Source of the DNA: a virus | DNA: 20,717 bases | Strand: one strand, 5' to 3' | Virus genome (UHGV): UHGV-1961940 | In this document: positions 1 to 19,288 of the stretch, one piece after another | Position numbering within the stretch: the stretch's first letter is position 1 | Layout: each line of letters starts with the position of its first letter | Position numbers and translations under genes: made by a program | The notes under the pieces: generated by a model | What the model saw: only the letters and a program-made list of their open reading frames with translations | Told to the model about the DNA's origin: nothing | Database searches by the model: none

Positions 1-792
1 CAGGAAGAAACTGGCAATCTGAGTTTTCGCGCTGGCAATCTGGGATTTTCCATCTTCTAATTTTTTCTTTGCATCTGCAAGTTGTGTTTTCCCGTCTTCC
101 AGTTTCTTCCTGGCATCTTCTAATTGTTTCTTACCATCTTTATATTGTTTCTTTCCGTCCTTAAGTTTCTTTTCACCGTCATCCAGTTCTTTCTTCGCAT
201 CTGCAAGTTTCTCATTGGCTTCTTTTTTGCCGTCTTCCAGTTCTTTCTTTGCATCTGCAAGCTTTTCATTGGCTTCATCCACTACTTCATCATAACGGAT
301 CTGACAACGTTCTTCCTCGATTCCCTTTACGCGTTCCTGCACTCTTTCTATCAGGCTTTCATAAGCATCCGTATAACTGATCAGATTTTGTGCCCCATGA
401 ACCTGCACATAAATCTGTGTAAATACTTCCTGATCAAAATTCTCCGGGAGTACATAAGCAAACCCGTTAACTTCACCTGAACCAAGAGTTGTATTTCCAC
501 GATTATAAGATATATAAAGAGGGCTCTCACCAATACCTACAACTGTATAATCTACATTCTGCAAAAGCTTGCTGTCCCCGTCCTGCTTCAGTGTAATCTG
601 ATCTCCGACTTCGTAACTGTTATTCTCGGCAAATATATAATCCAGAAATATCTCGCCACTCTTCTCGGGAATTCTTCCTTCCATAACAGTGATCTGGTTT
701 ACTGTTTCATTCACTGATTCCACGGAGCACTTATCGCAAACCTCAACGACATTGATAGTACCATAGTATTTATAAAGAATATAGCCAACGTA
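1..792 (-). pseudogene. Fragment of an FtsX/MacB-family ABC transporter permease (periplasmic core domain plus XXXLXXG heptad-repeat coiled-coil region). It is 5'-truncated by an in-frame TGA at 793-795, and its 3' end runs off the window start. An internal ATG at 682-684 could allow expression of a truncated product.
   Basis: Translating the minus strand by hand gives ...YKYYGTINVVEVCDKCSVESVNETVNQITVMEGRIPEKSGEIFLDYIFAENNSYEVGDQITLKQDGDSKLLQNVDYTVVGIGESPLYISYNRGNTTLGSGEVNGFAYVLPENFDQEVFTQIYVQV...EANEKLADAKKELEDGKKEANEKLADAKKELDDGEKKLKDGKKQYKDGKKQLEDARKKLEDGKTQLADAKKKLEDGKSQIASAKTQIASFFL. The frame is open down to nucleotide 1. This is the architecture of the large extracellular domain of Firmicutes FtsX-like permeases with LxxG heptads. 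There is no N-terminal TM segment and no SD in front of the ATG at 684. Confidence 0.5.
12..285 (-). repeat. Imperfect intragenic tandem repeats with a 21/42-nt period (heptad units) inside the permease fragment.
   Basis: ctggcaatctg occurs at 11-21 and 32-42. (tt)ctttctt(t/c)gcatctgcaag occurs at about 61-81, 187-207 and 241-261. ccgtcttccagtt occurs at 92-104 and 230-242. These encode repeated LADAKKELEDGKK-type heptads. Confidence 0.7.
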
Positions 793-11951: not shown

Positions 11952-13136
11952 TTAAGCTTTAGCCAAAATGGCGCTAAACTCTTCACCAAACTCTTTTACA
12001 ATCTTCATCAGGTTTGGGTATGCTTTGATCAGCTGAGCAACAATCTTGTCACGCCCTTTACCGATAAGCAAGGCATTTCCTAAGGCATTAGGTTTCATCA
12101 TCGCCATAAAGACTGAGAATACAAAATCTCGGTTCTCGTCCTTGAAGTTTTCCCAAAGGAAATCGAGGAAGTTTGCCACGCAGCTGACAAGATCTTCGTC
12201 TGAGATACTTGCATTTTCCATCATATTGCGAATAGCGATACAACCTTCAGATCCAAGAATCCACAAAATGTCTGGCTGCTTAGGACCTACGTATTCTTTG
12301 CAGCCACCTGCCATAATCCGACCGATTTCCGGTAAATTACGTTTCTTGGTGTGGTAAGTCCAGATCTCTACCGCTGCAGTGTGACCAATAGCACCTTGTA
12401 GAAGAACACGGGCCATAGCGTCAGAAATAATACCGCTGTCAAAATCGTGCAAGATGTCAGATGCAGCAACCCAAGATCGTGGTGTGGCAAAAGATGGACA
12501 ATTAATCTCAGCCATAGCCTCATAATTATCAATAGCTGATGGAACTCTTTTCAGATACCCAATTACAGAGGAGTGAACCCCGTTGAGGAATGCGTAGTCC
12601 TCAATAAACACCTCTGCATTGCTTGTAACCTCTACAATGATAAAACGGTTAGCCAGAGGGGCTTCGAGCGCCGAAAGAACCGCACCATCTGTAGAACGGT
12701 TACCCGCAGCCACAAAAACAGAACCCTTAGGGAATGCATAGGTGCCGCACTTGTGGTCAAGCATAATTTGCATTGCAACCTTTTGCAGGTAGTTATCTGC
12801 ATGAGTGAGCTCATCCAGAAAGATAATTCCGCTCCAGTCAGGATCCGCAGGCCAAAATTCTGGAATTGCAAACACTGTACGTGTAGTTCCATCCGCTTCT
12901 ACAGGGATAGGTAGCCCAGATAAGTCGGCAGGATCTTTATCTGACAGTCGCACGTCAACAAGGTTGTCATCTCGCTCACCGAACATATTATCAGCGATCT
13001 GCTTCATCACCTGGCTTTTACCCACACCCATTGGTCCCAAAATTAGGACAGATCGGCTATGACGTTGGGCAAACTGAATAATAGCTGGCAACTCACGGAC
13101 AGTGATTTGACCACTTTCGAATACGTTTCTTGACAT
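11952..13136 (-). CDS. MoxR/CbbQ/NorQ/CobS-like AAA+ ATPase (AAA_5 type).
   Basis: Walker A is LGPMGVGKSQ and Walker B is IIFLDELTHAD. The sensor/arginine-finger region is VFVAAGNRS...APLANRF. The start overlaps the upstream stop as TAATG. Confidence 0.85.
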   Translation of the reverse strand: MSRNVFESGQITVRELPAIIQFAQRHSRSVLILGPMGVGKSQVMKQIADNMFGERDDNLVDVRLSDKDPADLSGLPIPVEADGTTRTVFAIPEFWPADPDWSGIIFLDELTHADNYLQKVAMQIMLDHKCGTYAFPKGSVFVAAGNRSTDGAVLSALEAPLANRFIIVEVTSNAEVFIEDYAFLNGVHSSVIGYLKRVPSAIDNYEAMAEINCPSFATPRSWVAASDILHDFDSGIISDAMARVLLQGAIGHTAAVEIWTYHTKKRNLPEIGRIMAGGCKEYVGPKQPDILWILGSEGCIAIRNMMENASISDEDLVSCVANFLDFLWENFKDENRDFVFSVFMAMMKPNALGNALLIGKGRDKIVAQLIKAYPNLMKIVKEFGEEFSAILAKA

Positions 13137-13405
13137 TAGTAAAAGTCCTCTACTTGTGTGTAAGTGTTTTCAAAGTTTTCCAAAACAGATATCACATCGA
13201 ATCTGTCAATATCATACGTGACTCTCCAGTTGTACGCAACCCTTTCTGCTGTTGCCTCTTCTGGCGCTAGTCGTCTGCTGGCATAAAAGAGTGTTGGAGT
13301 ACACTTTCTTGCTTGCCCTCTAACTTTCCCATAATAATATCTGTGAATATCTTTGTCAAAATTTAACTCTTTTTCTGCACGAAGTTCATATTGCTGGTAT
13401 AACAT
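13136..13405 (-). CDS. Hypothetical protein, 89 aa.
   Basis: ORF with an AAGGAG SD 9 nt upstream. Translationally coupled to the MoxR gene. Confidence 0.55.
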   Translation of the reverse strand: MLYQQYELRAEKELNFDKDIHRYYYGKVRGQARKCTPTLFYASRRLAPEEATAERVAYNWRVTYDIDRFDVISVLENFENTYTQVEDFY

Positions 13406-13449
13406 CTCTACTACTCCTTAAGCAGCATCCTTGCCGCCATTCCTGCCCA

Positions 13450-13830
13450 CTAAAATGCAGTCCGAATCCAGACAAGGTTCTTATCTGCCCAATCATAGAG
13501 GCAAGTCATTGCACTATTGAATTGCTCACACGGAGGATAATCTTCTTCCATCTGGCGCATAGCAGAGCCTTGTGGGTAAAGCTCCCGTGCTGCAAACCAC
13601 GCATCGTAGTCATCAACGGTGTCGAAGTAGTATACAACATCCTCTAACTCAGGATCGAACTTTGAACTATCAGGATCCAGTTGTTCAGGGAACTTGGAGC
13701 GTAACTTGCCAGCCACAATACTTGCCAACTCGCTAACATGCTTATTGTCCCACTCCACTAGCTTCCCGTCTTCAGTGATGCGTCCTAACCACTGATCATG
13801 AAGGTCAACTGTTGTCTTCCACTGAGCCAT
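13450..13830 (-). CDS. Hypothetical protein, 126 aa.
   Basis: ORF in the leftward operon, 2 nt from the upstream gene. Confidence 0.6.
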   Translation of the reverse strand: MAQWKTTVDLHDQWLGRITEDGKLVEWDNKHVSELASIVAGKLRSKFPEQLDPDSSKFDPELEDVVYYFDTVDDYDAWFAARELYPQGSAMRQMEEDYPPCEQFNSAMTCLYDWADKNLVWIRTAF

Positions 13831-13832
13831 TA

Positions 13833-14090
13833 TCAGTCCACCTCTTCTTCTCGTTGTAGTTCAAGATACCCGTAGGTCTGGACATCTTGAAGGGTGTGGA
13901 ACTCCCCCTCTGCCGCTAAGGCACGAACAACTTGGCACAAAACCTTATGAGGAACTTCATCCAAACCTAGATTCAGTGCAGGAAACACCTTATCTAAGTC
14001 AACAAAATAAACGAACTGTAGCTCACCAGCTTCAAAAGGTGTATCTTCAATAAACATCTTCTCGGCATTAGTCAAGATCTGCACTTTCAT
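13833..14090 (-). CDS. Hypothetical protein, 85 aa.
   Basis: ORF whose start is TAATG-coupled to the upstream gene. Confidence 0.55.
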   Translation of the reverse strand: MKVQILTNAEKMFIEDTPFEAGELQFVYFVDLDKVFPALNLGLDEVPHKVLCQVVRALAAEGEFHTLQDVQTYGYLELQREEEVD

Positions 14091-14446
14091 TATTCTACCT
14101 CCTCTTCTTTTTCTTCGGCATTAGTTTCATGGCTACCCCACTCGGGAGTTTCCACCTCGATAGTAAACTCACGCACTACACGGTAATTGCCCATGAAGCG
14201 CTCTACTTCGTCAAGGCTTATGGAGAGGCCATTGGCAACCAGGTCTGCAGCACCCTCTTCTACCAGGTAGTCCAGATTGGCTTCCAGAGCCTCAGGTTCA
14301 AACCCTGTCAATGCAATCAGATAACCTTCCCCTTCATCAGGGAGGACAATACAGCCCAATTGATTTTCTTTAAAAAGGCAGTGACCATCATTATTGATTG
14401 GGTGTTCATTGCAGTAAATAGCTGCACGATAAGTAACTTTAGACAT
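14090..14446 (-). CDS. Hypothetical acidic protein, 118 aa, starting MSKVTYRA. The start is reassigned to the internal ATG, which has an AAGGAG SD.
   Basis: AAGGAGACCTTACCG ATG TCT AAA GTT.... The first 24 coding nt plus 5 upstream nt are identical to 16285-16313. The C-terminal EEKEEEVE is acidic. Confidence 0.6.
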   Translation of the reverse strand: MSKVTYRAAIYCNEHPINNDGHCLFKENQLGCIVLPDEGEGYLIALTGFEPEALEANLDYLVEEGAADLVANGLSISLDEVERFMGNYRVVREFTIEVETPEWGSHETNAEEKEEEVE

Positions 14447-14451
14447 CGGTA
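14423..14451 (-). repeat. Copy 1 of a perfect 29-nt repeat taccgATGTCTAAAGTTACTTATCGTGCA spanning a start codon. Copy 2 is at 16285-16313 on the opposite strand.
   Basis: Exact 29/29 identity, read by hand on both strands. Confidence 0.85.
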
Positions 14452-14459
14452 AGGTCTCC

Positions 14460-14738
14460 TTAGGCAATTGTCATTTTACATTCTTGAAATTTTAACACAA
14501 GACGGTAATTGTGTCTAGTGTCTAAAAAGATTTTTTCAACCATCAGGCACACGGTATAACCGTCCATCTTGTTGACAACAAAATCTCCAGGATGAGGGAG
14601 GATGTCTCCCGGATTGGGGAAACATAGTCCACTCAGAAAGGCATCGTCAGTGGTGGACTTAATAGATTTCCACACACTGTCTGCCTGAACATGTTCACCG
14701 ACGTAATATACATTACCACATGCCTTCATCATAGTCAA
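14460..14738 (-). CDS. Hypothetical protein, 92 aa.
   Basis: ORF whose start overlaps the stop of the upstream 299-aa gene. Confidence 0.55.
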   Translation of the reverse strand: MTMMKACGNVYYVGEHVQADSVWKSIKSTTDDAFLSGLCFPNPGDILPHPGDFVVNKMDGYTVCLMVEKIFLDTRHNYRLVLKFQECKMTIA

Positions 14739-15634
14739 ACCCTCGCATAAATTAAACTTGTATCAGTATACTTCTTTAATGGGTAAATATCCTGTCCATA
14801 GATGCAATCATTAAACACCTCATCTACCCAAAGGCTACACTTATATCCCATCATTTCTAAAACACCCATCTCTTCTTCGGTAAACTTATCACCGCTCTTG
14901 CAAGATGTCAATACCTCATTCTGAACTCTTGCTACCTCGAAGCGGTTATTGGCAATATCGCTATTGGCGATCAAATACTCACCTAGAGGGTGTGCGGCAT
15001 TAAAGATGCACAGTGGACGGCTGACGTAATAGTCTCCAGGTGTATAAAAATTGTTGAGGTCTTTCACTAGAACATTCTTATCAGTCACTTCATTTATAAC
15101 ATCATGCATATCGCACATCTTTATATGTTTGAGGATTCCATCCCCCATCACAAAATAAAAACTTGCTGAGACACTTTCGGCATAGATCTTACTAGATCCG
15201 TTGTAGTTGTATTTTACTCGGATGCTAACGGGGGTTTTTCCTGTCGCGTTAGCCATCATCCAAAGAAATGGCAGCTCATACTTCTCCTCTGAGGAAACAA
15301 AAGGTGAGGTAGCCAGAGATCGAAAACCTCCAGAGAAGTTGAAAGTTACAGAACCGCTCCGGCGGTATGATACCGCGTATTCTACTTTTATATCGACATA
15401 CCCATTGGAATAGGTGTGTCCTTCATTATCTAAATATGTCCACTTATCAGACCCAGATACCAATCTACGCTCAATAACCTTCATCACTATAGGAATTAAT
15501 GGGTTGGTACAAACCGCTTTTGAAGTAGCTTTATCATCTAAAGCCTCGTAAATTGCAGAAAGGATGTCCCCAGCTGAAAGATTGGTTGTTATGTCCTGTT
15601 TCCACCGCGTACTAAAACTGTTAAGATTTGCCAT
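14735..15634 (-). CDS. Hypothetical protein, 299 aa. It is the first gene of the leftward operon.
   Basis: An AGGAG SD lies 9 nt upstream of the ATG at 15634. The gene is immediately downstream of the predicted leftward promoter. Confidence 0.65.
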   Translation of the reverse strand: MANLNSFSTRWKQDITTNLSAGDILSAIYEALDDKATSKAVCTNPLIPIVMKVIERRLVSGSDKWTYLDNEGHTYSNGYVDIKVEYAVSYRRSGSVTFNFSGGFRSLATSPFVSSEEKYELPFLWMMANATGKTPVSIRVKYNYNGSSKIYAESVSASFYFVMGDGILKHIKMCDMHDVINEVTDKNVLVKDLNNFYTPGDYYVSRPLCIFNAAHPLGEYLIANSDIANNRFEVARVQNEVLTSCKSGDKFTEEEMGVLEMMGYKCSLWVDEVFNDCIYGQDIYPLKKYTDTSLIYARV

Positions 15635-15674
15635 AAGTAAGTGCTCCTATGTTAGTTTTCTTTCGAATGGGTGC

Positions 15675-15703
15675 ACTATATTGTGGAGTTAGAGTAAAGT
15701 CAA
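15675..15703 (-). promoter_or_regulatory. Sigma70/SigA-type promoter for the leftward operon: TTGACT, 17 nt, TATAGT.
   Basis: On the minus strand, the -35 TTGACT is the revcomp of 15698-15703, the spacer is 17 nt, and the -10 TATAGT is the revcomp of 15675-15680. It lies about 40 nt upstream of the ATG at 15634. Confidence 0.5.
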
Positions 15704-15721
15704 CACGTTTTTGATGTTGAC
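15699..15721. promoter_or_regulatory. Candidate operator: perfect inverted repeat GTCAACA-N9-TGTTGAC. Each arm contains a -35 hexamer of one of the two divergent promoters.
   Basis: GTCAACA is at 15699-15705 and TGTTGAC at 15715-15721. The left arm overlaps the minus-strand TTGACT. The right arm overlaps the plus-strand TTGACA at 15717-15722. Confidence 0.4.
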
Positions 15722-16754
15722 ATCTGTTGAGACAATTGATACGATTTCTTCACTTACAGAGCACGAGAGACGACTCATGAATCTTGAAAAATATTATACA
15801 CCAGAAGAGTTAGAGCGCTTGCTCAAAAAATATAGACGCAAACAGAATAACGCACGGAAACGAGATATAGAGTTCGACCTGTCATGGGAAGAATACCTCC
15901 TATTTGGTAAAAAACTTTTAGGAGATGGAGTATGCGACTATACCCTTATACCTTTTGACATGCACACAGATGAAAACGGGCTGGGGAATCCTTTCTACCC
16001 ATCCCTGGAGCGGATAGATGATGAAGGTCCTTATGCGGTTGATAACTGTTGTGTGGTGGGATTGAGATGCAACTCTCTAAAGGACTGTCTGGTAGATAAA
16101 AAGACTGCAGTCTTGATTAAAGACGAAACTGATCGAAAAATTGTCCAGCAGATGATGCTCCACCTGAGCGAAGAGCGTATGGAGAAATTGAAAGGTGATT
16201 ATACTTTTGAAGATTTCATCTTGCAATATGGAACGGAAGAGGATAAACTAGCACTCTTTGACGAAGAAGAGGAGGAAGATATGCTACCGATGTCTAAAGT
16301 TACTTATCGTGCACCCAAGAAGCACATTTCCGACATTGTAAACGAGCCTATCACAGAAGAGATTGAAGAAATGACGCAACAGGTGCATGAAGAGGAAAAA
16401 GAGACTCAGGAGGTCGAAGAGGAGCTTACAGAAGAGGTTCCTGCACTACCTGATGATGTTGAGATTGCCAAAGCTTACACTTTCTATTGTCAAACGTTCT
16501 ACGATGTAGGTATGAAAGTTGATCTGTCGTTCAGCCAATTTAAGAGTTCGTATATTCGCAAATGCTGTGCTTTAACTGGTGAACGTCTTGGAGCTGGACT
16601 TAAACCCCTGTTGGTGACCGACTGGAATAAAGGTTTCACTAAAGGAAACTTTATGGTAGTATCTCCAATTATGAAGAAAGCTATGACAGATCTTATGAAG
16701 ACCACCCGCATGACAATGACCGAGTTGGCAGGTATTTTCAAACACGTTAAATAA
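15711..16754 (+). CDS. Protein with two tandem, degenerate Endo VII-like (HNH-fold, recombination endonuclease VII family) modules. The start is uncertain: TTG 15711 or ATG 15714 have no SD; the ATG at 15777 has a weak GAGAGA SD. An internal in-frame start at 16281/16291 with a GAGGAGG SD could give a nested C-terminal isoform.
   Basis: Module 1 is ARKRDIEFDLSWEEYLLFGKKLLGDGVCDYTLIPFDMHTDENG...LRCNSL. This resembles Endo VII family RKxYGIxxEEYxxLxxxQGGxCAICG...VDHDHxTG...LLCxxCN. Module 2 is IRKCCALTGERLGAGLKPLLVTDWNKGFTKGNFMVVSP, with DWNK in place of DHDH. The assignment is by remembered motif pattern, not by search. Confidence 0.5.
   Translation: MMLTSVETIDTISSLTEHERRLMNLEKYYTPEELERLLKKYRRKQNNARKRDIEFDLSWEEYLLFGKKLLGDGVCDYTLIPFDMHTDENGLGNPFYPSLERIDDEGPYAVDNCCVVGLRCNSLKDCLVDKKTAVLIKDETDRKIVQQMMLHLSEERMEKLKGDYTFEDFILQYGTEEDKLALFDEEEEEDMLPMSKVTYRAPKKHISDIVNEPITEEIEEMTQQVHEEEKETQEVEEELTEEVPALPDDVEIAKAYTFYCQTFYDVGMKVDLSFSQFKSSYIRKCCALTGERLGAGLKPLLVTDWNKGFTKGNFMVVSPIMKKAMTDLMKTTRMTMTELAGIFKHVK
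15717..15745 (+). promoter_or_regulatory. Candidate rightward promoter: TTGACA, 17 nt, TACGAT.
   Basis: The -35 is a perfect TTGACA at 15717-15722. The -10-like TACGAT at 15740-15745 has the TAnnnT pattern. If this promoter is used, the rightward gene more likely starts at the ATG at 15777. Confidence 0.3.
16285..16313 (+). repeat. Copy 2 of the perfect 29-nt start-codon repeat (MSKVTYRA), inside the Endo VII-like ORF directly after a GAGGAGG motif.
   Basis: Identical to the revcomp of 14423-14451. Confidence 0.85.
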
Positions 16755-16758
16755 TGAC

Positions 16759-16775
16759 AGGGGCCAATGGCCCCT
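16759..16775 (+). promoter_or_regulatory. GC-rich hairpin AGGGGCC-AAT-GGCCCCT just after the Endo VII-like gene stop. It sequesters the ATG at 16767.
   Basis: 7-bp stem with a 3-nt loop, followed by TCTGGAGTTTTAATG. It may act as an attenuator or terminator and argues for the downstream start at 16788. Confidence 0.3.
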
Positions 16776-18248
16776 TCTGGAGTTTTAATGGATAGCAGAA
16801 GTTCAGAAATCATTGCCTCGCAGAAAGATGATGCCCTGAGAATGTTGCAGGCTGCACGTATGTATCTCCTTGAAAAGCTGCCGTTTTATGGCACACTACT
16901 GTCAGGGTTGCAGTTCGTAGAAAACCACACATGGTGCTCCACCATGGCAACCGACCATAAACGCATCTATTACAGTCCTGAGTTCATTATGGGATTGGCT
17001 GATGAACGCAAGGCTATTCTTAAGGCTTCTCTAACTGACGAGCAGTTTGAGATGGCTGAAGTTTTCTATTCTCCAAAATCTGTGAAAGAGGTGGCCTTCC
17101 TTCTGTCACATGAGGTGGGGCATATTATCTGTGATCACCTAGTCCGTGGTAAAAGCTTTGAGCCGGAACTGTTCAATATTGCTTGTGATCACGTTATCAA
17201 CACAGGCCTTGTGGTTGACTTTAGCAAACCTCCTTGTGTTTTCTTCCCGAAGGGGAAAAGCACTACGTTCATGAAAGGTAAGCCTTTTGGCTTCTTAGCC
17301 AGCTGCTACTGCGACATGAAGTTTCATGGATGGATTGCTGAGAACGTTTATGCAGTTCTTGATAAGCAAAGAGATCAGAATAACGGTAAAAGTAAGAACG
17401 GTAAAGGTGAGAACTCTCAAAGTGATAAGCGACAAACCGATGATCACATGAGTGGGAACGGTGGCACCAGTGATAATCTTGGAAAGGCTATGGGGTATGA
17501 TCAGCCACAACCTGTAATCAGCCAATCTGATAAAGATCAGGCCATGCAGGACTCTGGTGATATGCTGGAGGCAGCAATGCAAGCGTCCGGAGGCCGTTGC
17601 CCTGAGGCGGTGCGTGAGTTTGTCAAGAACAGAGGTAAGCCTGTAATCAACTATATAGACATCATTAAGCAACGTATGTTGTCTAAAAGAAAGGCCGAAC
17701 TGACCTACAGAAAACCTGGTCGCCGATCTGGGTCTTTGACCAGCACAATGCGAAAAGTTGGGGCTATAAACAAGAACCAGCACGTTATTGTTCCTGGTCG
17801 TAATCCGGAAAACACTATAGATATTGTGGTGGCTTTAGACGTTTCTGGCTCGATCTCTCAAAGAACTTTAAAGAAAATGTTCAATGAAATCACCGGATTG
17901 TGCAATCTGTATAAAGAGTTTAAGGTTACAATGTTCTGTTGGTCAACTGAGGTTGGAGAGGTTAAAGTATACACTCGCGGCAACATAGACGAGATGGTCA
18001 ACTATGAGGTCCACTCAACATGGGGCACAACAGCTGCTTGCGTGTTCGAGTATCTGGATGCCAACATACCTAATGCAAAAGATGTCATCGTCCTGACCGA
18101 CCTATACTTTGAGCATAACTTTGAACAAAAGGTTGTTGACAACAAGTGGAAAAAGTACGATACTCTATGGGTCCTCACTGAGGGGTATAATAAAAATTAT
18201 ATCCCGAGCTTTGGGAAAACTGTGGAATTAATCGAGTACGCTAAGTAA
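16767..18248 (+). CDS. Zincin-like putative metallopeptidase domain (HExxH) fused to a von Willebrand factor A (VWA) domain. Probable partner of the MoxR-like ATPase. The ATG at 16788 (MDSRSSEI, GGAG SD) is an alternative start.
   Basis: The N-terminal domain contains HEVGHIICDH. The MIDAS motif is IVVALDVSGSIS (DxSGS). This matches DUF2201_N plus VWA (CoxE/NorD/CobT-like) architecture. Confidence 0.8.
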   Translation: MAPSGVLMDSRSSEIIASQKDDALRMLQAARMYLLEKLPFYGTLLSGLQFVENHTWCSTMATDHKRIYYSPEFIMGLADERKAILKASLTDEQFEMAEVFYSPKSVKEVAFLLSHEVGHIICDHLVRGKSFEPELFNIACDHVINTGLVVDFSKPPCVFFPKGKSTTFMKGKPFGFLASCYCDMKFHGWIAENVYAVLDKQRDQNNGKSKNGKGENSQSDKRQTDDHMSGNGGTSDNLGKAMGYDQPQPVISQSDKDQAMQDSGDMLEAAMQASGGRCPEAVREFVKNRGKPVINYIDIIKQRMLSKRKAELTYRKPGRRSGSLTSTMRKVGAINKNQHVIVPGRNPENTIDIVVALDVSGSISQRTLKKMFNEITGLCNLYKEFKVTMFCWSTEVGEVKVYTRGNIDEMVNYEVHSTWGTTAACVFEYLDANIPNAKDVIVLTDLYFEHNFEQKVVDNKWKKYDTLWVLTEGYNKNYIPSFGKTVELIEYAK

Positions 18249-18263
18249 GAGAGGAGGTTATTT

Positions 18264-18527
18264 ATGGCAACAGAGTTAAAATTTGCATCAAACCGTAAAA
18301 CTAAGAAGTATCTGTCCTCAGTAGCTCCAGGCACTGTGGTGATGTTTGTTGATGAACTTGGGGATGTGAATACAGCACTTGTTGTAAAATCACATCCTGC
18401 AAACATATATGTTGGGGTATTTGACCTGTTCAGAAAGGTGTTTGTAGAACTGCCTCACAGTTTGGTTGTTACAGAAATGGATGCCTGCATAGAAATTCTT
18501 GGCGAAGTTATGGTGGAGGAACAATAA
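18264..18527 (+). CDS. Small protein, 87 aa. Paralog 1 of a four-member tandem family.
   Basis: MATELKFASNRKTKKYLSSVAPGTVV...VTEMDACIEILGE. A GAGGAGG SD is present. It aligns clearly with paralog 2. Confidence 0.65.
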   Translation: MATELKFASNRKTKKYLSSVAPGTVVMFVDELGDVNTALVVKSHPANIYVGVFDLFRKVFVELPHSLVVTEMDACIEILGEVMVEEQ

Positions 18528-18790
18528 TGGCTACCAGCATTGTATTCAATTCTAAGGTGAAGAACAAAAAGCGTGCAGACAGTTTTCCGTGTGGGACCGT
18601 GGTAAGTTGCGACGGAGACGGCATTCAAAACATAGTTATGATTGTCAAAACAGGAGAACATTGTGTGTGGGGGTTCGATTTAGAAAATAATGAGTTGTAC
18701 GATCTGCCGCCAAACATGAAAGTTACAGAGCTTGACACCAAAATTACCATCCTTGGAGAGACAAGCTATTCAAAAGAAGGAGGAGAATAA
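18527..18790 (+). CDS. Small protein, 87 aa. Paralog 2.
   Basis: MATSIVFNSKVKNKKRADSFPCGTVV...VTELDTKITILGE. The start is TAATG-coupled to paralog 1. Confidence 0.65.
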   Translation: MATSIVFNSKVKNKKRADSFPCGTVVSCDGDGIQNIVMIVKTGEHCVWGFDLENNELYDLPPNMKVTELDTKITILGETSYSKEGGE

Positions 18791-19053
18791 TGACCACAAA
18801 AATCACTATCGCAGAACCGAAAGCTAACACTCAGCCTATCGAAAAGTTTAAGTACGGTGAGGTGGTAACATTCACACCAGATAATGAAGATGCTAAGATT
18901 TTCGCAATGGTCACAGCTGAGTGGATGTGTGACAACACCACACAGGTTCTGCGTTTTGACACCTATCTTACCGATGAAATCAGGAACGACAAGATTGTGA
19001 CTGGTGTGGATACTGAGATTGTTTTCTACAAGAGCTTTTTAGAGGGTTTCTGA
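18790..19053 (+). CDS. Small protein, 87 aa. Paralog 3 (more diverged).
   Basis: MTTKITIAEPKANTQPIEKFKYGEVVTF...KIFAMVTAE. TAATG-coupled. GAAGGAGGAG upstream. Confidence 0.6.
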   Translation: MTTKITIAEPKANTQPIEKFKYGEVVTFTPDNEDAKIFAMVTAEWMCDNTTQVLRFDTYLTDEIRNDKIVTGVDTEIVFYKSFLEGF

Positions 19054-19054
19054 T

Positions 19055-19288
19055 ATGGCAAAAATTAGAAAATTATCTAGCAATCAGGTTGTGAAAGACT
19101 TCGAATCTGGAGAGATTCTTTATGTTCGTGATGCAGATGACGAAGGTGAAGATCTCGTTATGTTGGTGGGGCACGCTGAGGACGGATGCATCCAAGCTGT
19201 TTTTCTTGAAACAGCTATGGTGCACTGGATAGAGCTGGACCTGAAAGCACGAAAACCTAAAGCAGAAATCCTGATTTACGAAGATTAA
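19055..19288 (+). CDS. Small protein, 77 aa. Paralog 4 (most diverged).
   Basis: MAKIRKLSSNQVVKDFESGEILYVRDADDEGEDLVMLVGHAE. The start lies 1 nt after the stop of paralog 3. Confidence 0.55.
   Translation: MAKIRKLSSNQVVKDFESGEILYVRDADDEGEDLVMLVGHAEDGCIQAVFLETAMVHWIELDLKARKPKAEILIYED

Follow-up and report, generated by a model that had tools for sequence, protein, structure and literature searches.

Template switching is a known way of turning imperfect inverted repeats into perfect ones, usually between arms that lie tens to hundreds of nucleotides (nt) apart (PMC8604942, PMC7954356). The subject of the present article is a perfect 29-nt inverted repeat in a 20,717-nt stretch of the viral genome UHGV-1961940 (the whole stretch is referred to here as the window), one arm of which spans the start of the gene gp008 on the minus strand and the other a linker-coding region inside gp011 on the plus strand; the names gp008 to gp012 follow the numbering of phage Murica. 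Quasipalindrome-type templated mutation, as in Ripley's model, has reportedly been described in phage T4 and Escherichia coli. The locus is like template-switch mutation in that the gp011 linker held an older imperfect inverted repeat with microhomology anchors, the multi-nucleotide replacement reproduces the other arm exactly in reverse complement (29/29), and the change appears as one step on the tree, with several codons altered at once; unlike in such mutation, the arms are 1,833 nt apart and 12 nt have also been removed.

The other systems that come to mind are site-specific invertible segments: the G segment of phage Mu (Gin), the C segment of P1 (Cin), the Hin system of Salmonella and the invertons of gut bacteria. 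Here, as there, short inverted repeats stand in frame within coding sequence, constant and variable gene parts are re-paired, there are promoters within the segment, and each orientation is found in nature. In contrast to them, no invertase gene lies nearby (about 10 kb scanned) and there is no dyad-symmetric crossover site; moreover, 86 of 114 records and the outgroups are without the second arm, the arms diverge independently, both orientations give no sign of coexisting in one population, and the origin of the repeat as a recent accident is still visible.

General recombination offers a further comparison. RecA-dependent recombination in E. coli has a minimal processing segment of roughly 25 bp, and by analogy the 27–29 bp of perfect identity found here, with the exchange point inside the common stretch, would be in keeping with a rare event of this kind that is met as a fixed lineage variant; what differs is the outcome, which at this locus preserves two reading frames and both transcription units. 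At the protein level, the N-terminal module (N-module) of gp011 resembles the T4 Srd family in matching PHROGs 1400 and 4592 (at about 1e-10 to 1e-13), whereas gp011 adds an acidic linker and a C-terminal module (C-module) outside those profiles, and its Srd-like role is a prediction.

Templated mutation and general recombination are thus both well known, and the case is notable mainly for its visible origin and for its consequence, an in-frame module swap around a bidirectional promoter. It is a clean and datable case in which one templated mutation appears to have made a perfect inverted repeat from chance microhomologies 1.8 kb apart: donor and recipient can be identified, and so can the anchors and the ancestral state. 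The new repeat in turn permits a rearrangement in which protein modules are recombined in frame and early promoters change places, while neither operon is destroyed. In the rV5-like phages, which serve as biocontrol agents against E. coli O157, the case further amounts to a natural experiment in splitting and fusing an Srd-like early protein.

A perfect inverted repeat shared by gp008 and gp011

The 29-mer TACCGATGTCTAAAGTTACTTATCGTGCA occurs at exactly two places in the window, 16285–16313 on the plus strand and 14423–14451 on the minus strand, with no mismatch between them. The left arm (14423–14451), which is the donor copy, comprises the last 5 nt of the spacer between the ribosome-binding site (RBS) and the ATG of gp008 followed by codons 1–8; the right arm (16285–16313), the derived copy, runs through the gp011 linker from the last two bases of codon L170 to A179. 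Both encode MSKVTYRA, each in the frame of its own gene, and the gp008 and gp011 proteins are otherwise unrelated – all of which agrees with a preliminary description of this DNA. Between the arms lie 1,833 nt (14452–16284) that hold gp009, gp010, the bidirectional promoters and codons 1–169 of gp011; this is the segment found inverted in sequencing run ERR6406626 (see below).

That description had also placed a 29-mer of this kind far beyond chance in 20 kb, and rightly so: none of 100 dinucleotide-preserving shuffles contained any match to the 29-mer pair, and by simple arithmetic some 1e-9 inverted 29-mers are expected in 20.7 kb. All exact inverted k-mer pairs of at least 15 nt in the window are parts of this one repeat, the runner-up exact inverted match being 14 nt and the longest direct match 18 nt. 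Chance or an assembly error in the window was considered and discarded, the same two copies being present in Murica, Gotham, MiataMamis and the gut contig L018 (four independent sequences). In addition, 27 phage records are 100% identical to the window in the 101-nt stretch surrounding the gp011 copy.

Some details given earlier need adjustment. The repeat begins 4 nt past GAGGAGGAAGAT rather than directly after it. What had been read as a 347-amino-acid (aa) open reading frame (ORF) is most likely a gene of 325 aa starting at ATG 15777, as in the Murica annotation; the TTG start at 15711 that would give 347 aa lies upstream of a promoter-like site at 15717–15745. Finally, a product initiated at the ATG of the repeat (16290) would be 154 aa long, not 152.

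Distribution among Vequintaviruses

Between 13800 and 17000 the window is 99.9% identical to Murica, and sequence comparison places it in Vequintavirus, the rV5-like myoviruses of E. coli. A 31-nt query found 146 places in 118 Vequintavirus records, 28 of them with two copies and about 90 with one. The single copy of the one-copy records is always the gp008 start, and the corresponding region, ATGTCTAAAGTTACTTATCGTGCA, is present in about 118 records; the gp011 copy, on the other hand, is found in only 28 of about 114–118. When a 101-nt query centred on the gp011 copy was used, the 114 records fell into two groups with no intermediates: 27 at 100% and ECP32 at 97%, as opposed to 86 at 60–80%, which have the ancestral linker, 12 nt longer. 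Each two-copy genome contains exactly two places, so that the search for further copies in the genome and its relatives yielded none beyond these, and the other phage matches were 18-nt chance matches.

The gp011 copy is missing from rV5, NHEP1, ECP26, HMD-6, I29, JeffSchatz, AlexBoehm and two IMG/VR contigs, in all of which the ancestral state and its anchors are seen instead, and from all more distant homologues and outgroups. Homologues at 55–67% protein identity have a linker of the ancestral type, in which QELREFMEKR aligns with QDFKNFMADR, and it follows that the gp011 copy is derived and that gp008 is the donor. This distribution disagrees with the proposal of a portable gene-start cassette or conserved cis-regulatory element, and it carries a general caution: relatives should be checked before long perfect repeats in phages are read as conserved control elements. 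A stand-alone C-module gene, which might have been the source of such a cassette, was also sought and dropped as a candidate, both gp011 modules being fused in 21 of 21 homologue clusters (except for frameshifted or truncated calls) and no free C-module gene being found among these clusters in normally arranged relatives.

Sixteen unannotated records labelled ‘Campylobacter phage’ (C12, C2, A14x and others, with Campylobacter jejuni given as host) share as much as 99.6% identity with E. coli Vequintaviruses over 13800–17000, and are likely to be mislabelled or contaminated.

Origin of the gp011 copy

The likely course of events can be read from three aligned sequences, each in three consecutive parts. 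The ancestral, rV5-type linker reads ATGTCACCGATG, CAGGATTTTAAAAATTTCATGGCTG and ATCGTGCAGCCAAC; the gp008 start reads CTTACCGATG, TCTAAAGTTACTT and ATCGTGCAGCTATT; and the gp011 linker of the window reads ATGCTACCGATG, TCTAAAGTTACTT and ATCGTGCACCCAAG. The ancestral linker is therefore already an imperfect inverted repeat to gp008, with microhomologies of 7 and 10 nt around non-matching cores of 25 and 13 nt, respectively. In the window, the templated core TCTAAAGTTACTT (13 nt; 16293–16305, plus strand) has taken the place of 25 ancestral nucleotides, CAGGAyTTTAAAAAyTTyATGGCTr in the alignments. To its left stands the anchor ACCGATG (16286–16292, plus strand), which is already present in rV5- and NHEP1-type linkers and contains the older ATG of M172; to its right stands the anchor ATCGTGCA (16306–16313, plus strand), where rV5- and I29-type linkers had ATCGTGCAGC, a 10-nt match to gp008. 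The net change in gp011 is the loss of four codons in frame, QDFKNFMAD being replaced by SKVTY.

Comparison of these states shows that, in the ancestor of the Murica/FFH2-like Vequintaviruses, the linker happened to match the inverted gp008 start at ACCGATG and ATCGTGCAGC, and that in one non-reciprocal templated event the 13 nt between the gp008 anchors were copied into gp011, displacing 25 nt and thereby making the imperfect inverted repeat perfect over 29–31 bp. The event was non-reciprocal, as gp008 retains its own sequence. A reciprocal double crossover – an inversion followed by re-inversion at the other anchor – was rejected for the corresponding reason that gp008 would then carry the gp011 patch, which it does not. 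Mechanistically, the nascent strand may have undergone a double template switch, or short-tract ectopic gene conversion (repair of the synthesis-dependent strand annealing type) may have been primed at the microhomologies. That the change persisted is presumably due to its position in a poorly conserved acidic linker.

Independent decay and spread of the new allele

Once formed, the new allele has not been kept in step with its donor, and it has spread by ordinary homologous recombination among phages. The two copies of ECP32 have only 24 nt in common, and the proteins P0054 and P0055 show an S-to-P change in the gp011 copy only. Over a 5-kb region ECP32 is NHEP1-like (mostly at about 92–100%), except at 16249–16486, where it is 97.5% identical to the window compared with 81% to NHEP1; the converted linker was therefore gained by homologous recombination. 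The recombinant tract of ECP32 (L012), 250–500 bp in length, is in itself an example of a very short mosaic exchange among co-circulating Vequintaviruses.

Inversion between the arms

Since both arms have the same codon phase, two intact ORFs are expected after a crossover between them. One joins gp011 (1–171) to gp008, through a junction that we term J1 (gp011N::gp008); the other places the gp008 RBS in front of MSKVTYRAPKK... and continues to the end of gp011, giving 154 aa (junction J2, gp008 RBS/C-module). An exact-sequence look-up found both predicted proteins. The 310-aa fusion (P0037, with an upstream extension called by Prodigal) is encoded on L019, a 14,494-nt Logan contig of run ERR6406626, and the 154-aa protein (P0051) on L020, a 6,743-nt Logan contig of the same run, as well as on six short ENA contigs, with a variant on a seventh. 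When aligned to the window by BLAST, L019 consists of 15665–16313 joined through the repeat to 14451 and on down to 4085, and L020 of 15539 down to 14423 joined to 16287–18275. The contigs represent the reciprocal junctions and form colinear parts of a single inverted genome, in which the free C-module and gp012 come after gp010–gp009, and gp007 onward after the Srd-N::gp008 fusion. The preliminary description had foreseen that recombination between the copies would invert the 1.8-kb control region, and to this extent it proved correct: both in-frame products exist exactly in public assemblies and both junctions are present in ERR6406626, with no deposited isolate inverted.

How much weight these contigs can bear depends on how they were made. 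Logan assembles its contigs from 31-mers that occur two or more times (PMC12424806), and k was 31 for this run, while the arms of the ERR6406626 strain have 27 nt in common. The arms being shorter than the 31-mers, the de Bruijn graph joins the loci only if the junctions are present in the reads. The flanks of the L019 and L020 junctions measure from 620 nt to more than 10 kb, and both contigs pass through the repeat unbranched, which means that the uninverted junction is not detectably present there and suggests a single orientation in this sample. We therefore regard the inversion in ERR6406626 as real and as the dominant form of that sample. Inversion of the 1.8-kb segment is shown for this one sample, and it probably came about by general homologous recombination, 27–29 bp of identity being enough for a rare crossing-over between the arms. 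The segment carries both outward promoters, so that both flanking operons stay transcribed after inversion, which plausibly explains the viability of the inverted form.

Outside these assemblies, no inversion junction was found in GenBank phages, IMG/VR or GTDB genomes, and a 137-kb JGI/ENA gut contig is colinear with the window. Ten further variant fusion and C154 sequences were not in the collection. No Pfam recombinase domain was detected in the window genes of 11952–18248 or in the genes called on L019 and L020 up to about 10 kb to each side, a scan that did not extend to the remainder of the 137-kb genome. An A/G polymorphism upstream of gp008 was tried as a marker of the inverted lineage and abandoned, the G variant being present in normal-orientation isolates as well.

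Competing explanations

Taken as a whole, the account that we consider probable is that the repeat is a young mutational scar and, secondarily, a recombination substrate. A number of observations weigh against it. The spacing of 1,833 nt, set against the tens to hundreds of nucleotides of documented template-switch events, makes short-tract ectopic gene conversion, in the course of recombination-dependent replication, an equally plausible mechanism. Substitutions flanking the patch (TC to CT at 16284–16285, G to C at 16314 and C to G at 16319) are left unexplained by the gp008 template; they may be ordinary divergence, given that no other part of the protein varies as much or is as rich in indels as the linker, or belong to a more complex event. 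The absence of a function is argued from a lack of conservation. As for the inversion, robust support comes from only one sequencing run, in the form of assembled contigs, while all of the 116–118 GenBank phage records and one 137-kb gut contig are uninverted. The seven ENA contigs with J2 measure 572–1,975 nt, with a coverage of 0.19–2x in the three that report it, and extend for about 25–170 nt (approximately one read) on the gp009 side compared with 490–1,812 nt on the other. Normal gp011 (P0022) is found in 26 contig blocks of at least 20 kb and three below 2 kb, whereas six of seven blocks with the inverted-type P0051 are below 2 kb and the longest P0051 contig is 6.7 kb.

Pressed to the full, these points would reduce the repeat to an inert scar that never recombines productively, all inverted contigs – those of ERR6406626 included – being artefacts of library preparation or assembly. 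The ENA contigs do have haplotypes that resemble several different normal-orientation strains, as chimeras would, and chimeric joins at k = 21–29 by multi-k assemblers in low coverage fit them at least as well as recurrent inversion; they are accordingly not counted as independent evidence here, and they serve as a warning that such assemblers can make inversion-like chimeras at repeats of this kind in low-coverage metagenomes. ERR6406626 is a different matter, however: joining the loci there needs real junction reads, both reciprocal junctions come from one run with long flanks, and the contigs are unbroken through the repeat, with no detectable uninverted junction. A wholly inert scar is for these reasons unlikely. 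If, conversely, the ENA contigs are real, J2 stands on at least five haplotypes in eight samples, which would indicate recurrent flipping. The repeat would then be an accidental bistable element without an invertase, its 1.8-kb segment alternating in Murica-like phages between a fused Srd-like protein with free gp008 and Srd-N::gp008 with a free C-module – an inverton-like switch observed as it comes into being. We think this rather improbable. A programmed or frequent switch, toggling the segment so as to swap the promoters P10 and P11 between the early operons and to alternate fused and split forms of the Srd-like protein, would draw on the same haplotype counts, on the intactness of both predicted ORFs and the continued transcription of both operons, and on a logic that by analogy recalls the in-frame invertible segments Mu G and P1 C. 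Yet invertase and resolvase domains are absent for about 10 kb in both directions; the 29-mer, on inspection, lacks the dyad half-site structure of the hix and gix sites; some three quarters of the genus do not have the repeat, the copies of which are not kept identical; and one orientation in ERR6406626 with the other in all isolates fits fixed lineages rather than mixed populations. Such a switch seems decidedly improbable.

Explanations that give the repeat a function of its own fare worse still. It had been suggested that it creates an internal in-frame start, but the ATGs at 16281 (M169) and 16290 (M172) are already present in relatives without the second copy, so that the start was not created by the repeat. 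A copied gp008 initiation region could nonetheless have been retained by selection as a translational element, for internal initiation that would release a free 154-aa C-module from the normal gene: the patch reproduces positions -5 to +24 of a real start site, a purine-rich run resembling a Shine–Dalgarno (SD) sequence lies upstream, the allele reached the ECP32 background on a short recombinant tract, and a free C-module is evidently tolerated in the inverted lineage. Against this, both ATGs are older than the patch; the real SD of gp008 was not copied into gp011, where ATG172 has its closest GGAGG at a distance of 14 nt; and folding of the RNA at the candidate internal starts shows no gain in accessibility from the patch, the predicted unpaired probability around the ATG falling from 0.61 (ancestral) to 0.45 (converted). 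In addition, 154-aa calls occur only on J2-type contigs, the 157-aa calls starting at M169 (P0052 and P0056) were not traced to contigs, and with mosaicism so pervasive the ECP32 tract needs no selection. We consider selection for initiation very improbable, and the related idea of a small-RNA target or shared translational element encounters the further difficulty that the two copies are not conserved together and decay independently. Least probable of all, almost to the point of being negligible, is that the repeat is a homing-endonuclease target or a co-conversion tract. What speaks for it is that gp011 and gp012 bear ‘HNH endonuclease’ labels in RefSeq/Pharokka-style annotations; what speaks against it is that neither has an HNH, GIY-YIG or Endo VII match in Pfam, that gp012 consists of DUF2201_N and a VWA-like domain, that the authors of the rV5 study class gp11 as Srd-like, and that phages with and without the patch do not differ in the presence of an endonuclease gene. 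More broadly, none of gp008 to gp012 has a Pfam match to HNH, GIY-YIG or LAGLIDADG, nor do the halves of gp011 at E = 10. Nothing indicates that the repeat has a dedicated recombinase, a regulatory role or a selected function.

Genes and promoters of the locus

The gene gp008 (14090–14446, minus strand) encodes 118 aa of unknown function (phrog_12908). Its RBS, AAGGAG (14456–14461, minus strand), lies 9 nt upstream of the ATG and outside the repeat, and in the inverted isomers it fronts the gp011 C-module. In the Murica annotation, gp009 (14460–14732) and gp010 (14735–15634) follow on the same strand. The gap of 141 nt between gp010 and gp011 holds, according to a consensus scan, back-to-back σ70-like promoter candidates (15675–15745): TTGACT-17-TATAGT on the minus strand (15703 to 15675) and TTGACA-17-TACGAT with a TG on the plus strand (15717 to 15745). 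This is consistent with the bidirectional promoters described between genes 10 and 11 of rV5 (PMC3606486). A palindrome with 8-bp arms, GTCAACATCAAAAACGTGTTGAC (15699–15721), contains the -35 boxes of both sites and could be an operator common to the two early promoters. A further promoter-like sequence, TAGACA-17-TAAAAT with an extended -10 TG (14489–14517, minus strand), is located in the 3' end of gp009, just upstream of gp008; if real, it travels with the invertible segment, and in inverted isomers the free C-module would be expressed from it.

On the other side, gp011 (15777–16754, plus strand) encodes the 325-aa Srd-like protein, with the N-module at about residues 13–130, the acidic linker at about 164–222 and the C-module at about 226–325. 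An SD-like GGAGG (16271–16275) precedes the ATG of M169 (16281–16283, plus strand), the spacer being 5 nt to ATG169 and 14 nt to ATG172 of the repeat. M169 is nearly invariant among homologues, and the homologue alignment shows the linker around it to be the part of the protein richest in variation and indels. An AlphaFold model of gp011 has a mean predicted local distance difference test score (pLDDT) of 57 and its lowest values of all in the linker (28–34); at this low confidence it is too poor for a fold search, and was used only for the confidence of the linker itself. Compared with each other by BLASTP, the two halves give E = 2.2, which does not establish them as homologous modules.

At the level of annotation, the N-module matches phrog_1400 Srd (2.4e-10) and phrog_4592 sigma-70 decoy (3.4e-13), and also an Endo VII-like PHROG, all within a range of 1e-10 to 1e-13. 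The gp11 protein of rV5 is a probable Srd homologue according to its authors (PMC3606486). Neither gp011 nor gp008 has a significant relative in Pfam, NCBIfam or PDB; for gp011 and its two halves there is no Pfam match even at E = 10, and for gp011 no PDB relative at E = 1. In public records gp011 and gp012 appear as ‘HNH endonuclease’ in some cases and as ‘anti-sigma factor’ in others; the HNH labels, which stem from PHROG names, are without domain support. As for gp012 (16767–18248, plus strand), Pfam assigns it a DUF2201_N metallopeptidase and a VWA-like domain, and it probably partners a MoxR-like AAA ATPase (11952–13136) across the divergent promoter.

In several public contigs a frameshift following VDKK breaks gp011 into two ORFs, at a run of A in GATAAAAAGACT (window positions about 16098–16104). 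On one 9,738-nt Logan contig the gene is divided into P0062 (114 aa) and P0018 (203 aa), P0065 being similar, and P0017 and P0021 have frameshifts further downstream; these may reflect sequencing error or real homopolymer slippage.

Other variable parts of the window

Beyond gp012, the window and MiataMamis are only 43–54% identical to rV5, NHEP1 and ECP32 at 18236–18723, between flanks of 94–100%, and L020 fails to align over 18275–18779. A cassette seems to have been replaced here, where an array of small genes begins. The array itself (18264–19288) consists of four consecutive, similar-looking genes of 87, 87, 87 and 77 aa, whose stop/start junctions abut or overlap by 1 nt. It has the appearance of a tandem set of paralogues of variable copy number between phages, the neighbours having 85/87/77 or 87/87/87/77 aa. 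At the opposite end of the window (44–276), a periodic direct repeat with a spacing of 21/42 nt and an identity of 60–89% lies within a minus-strand ORF at the edge of the window, on the coding strand of that ORF, and probably encodes a heptad-like repeat protein.

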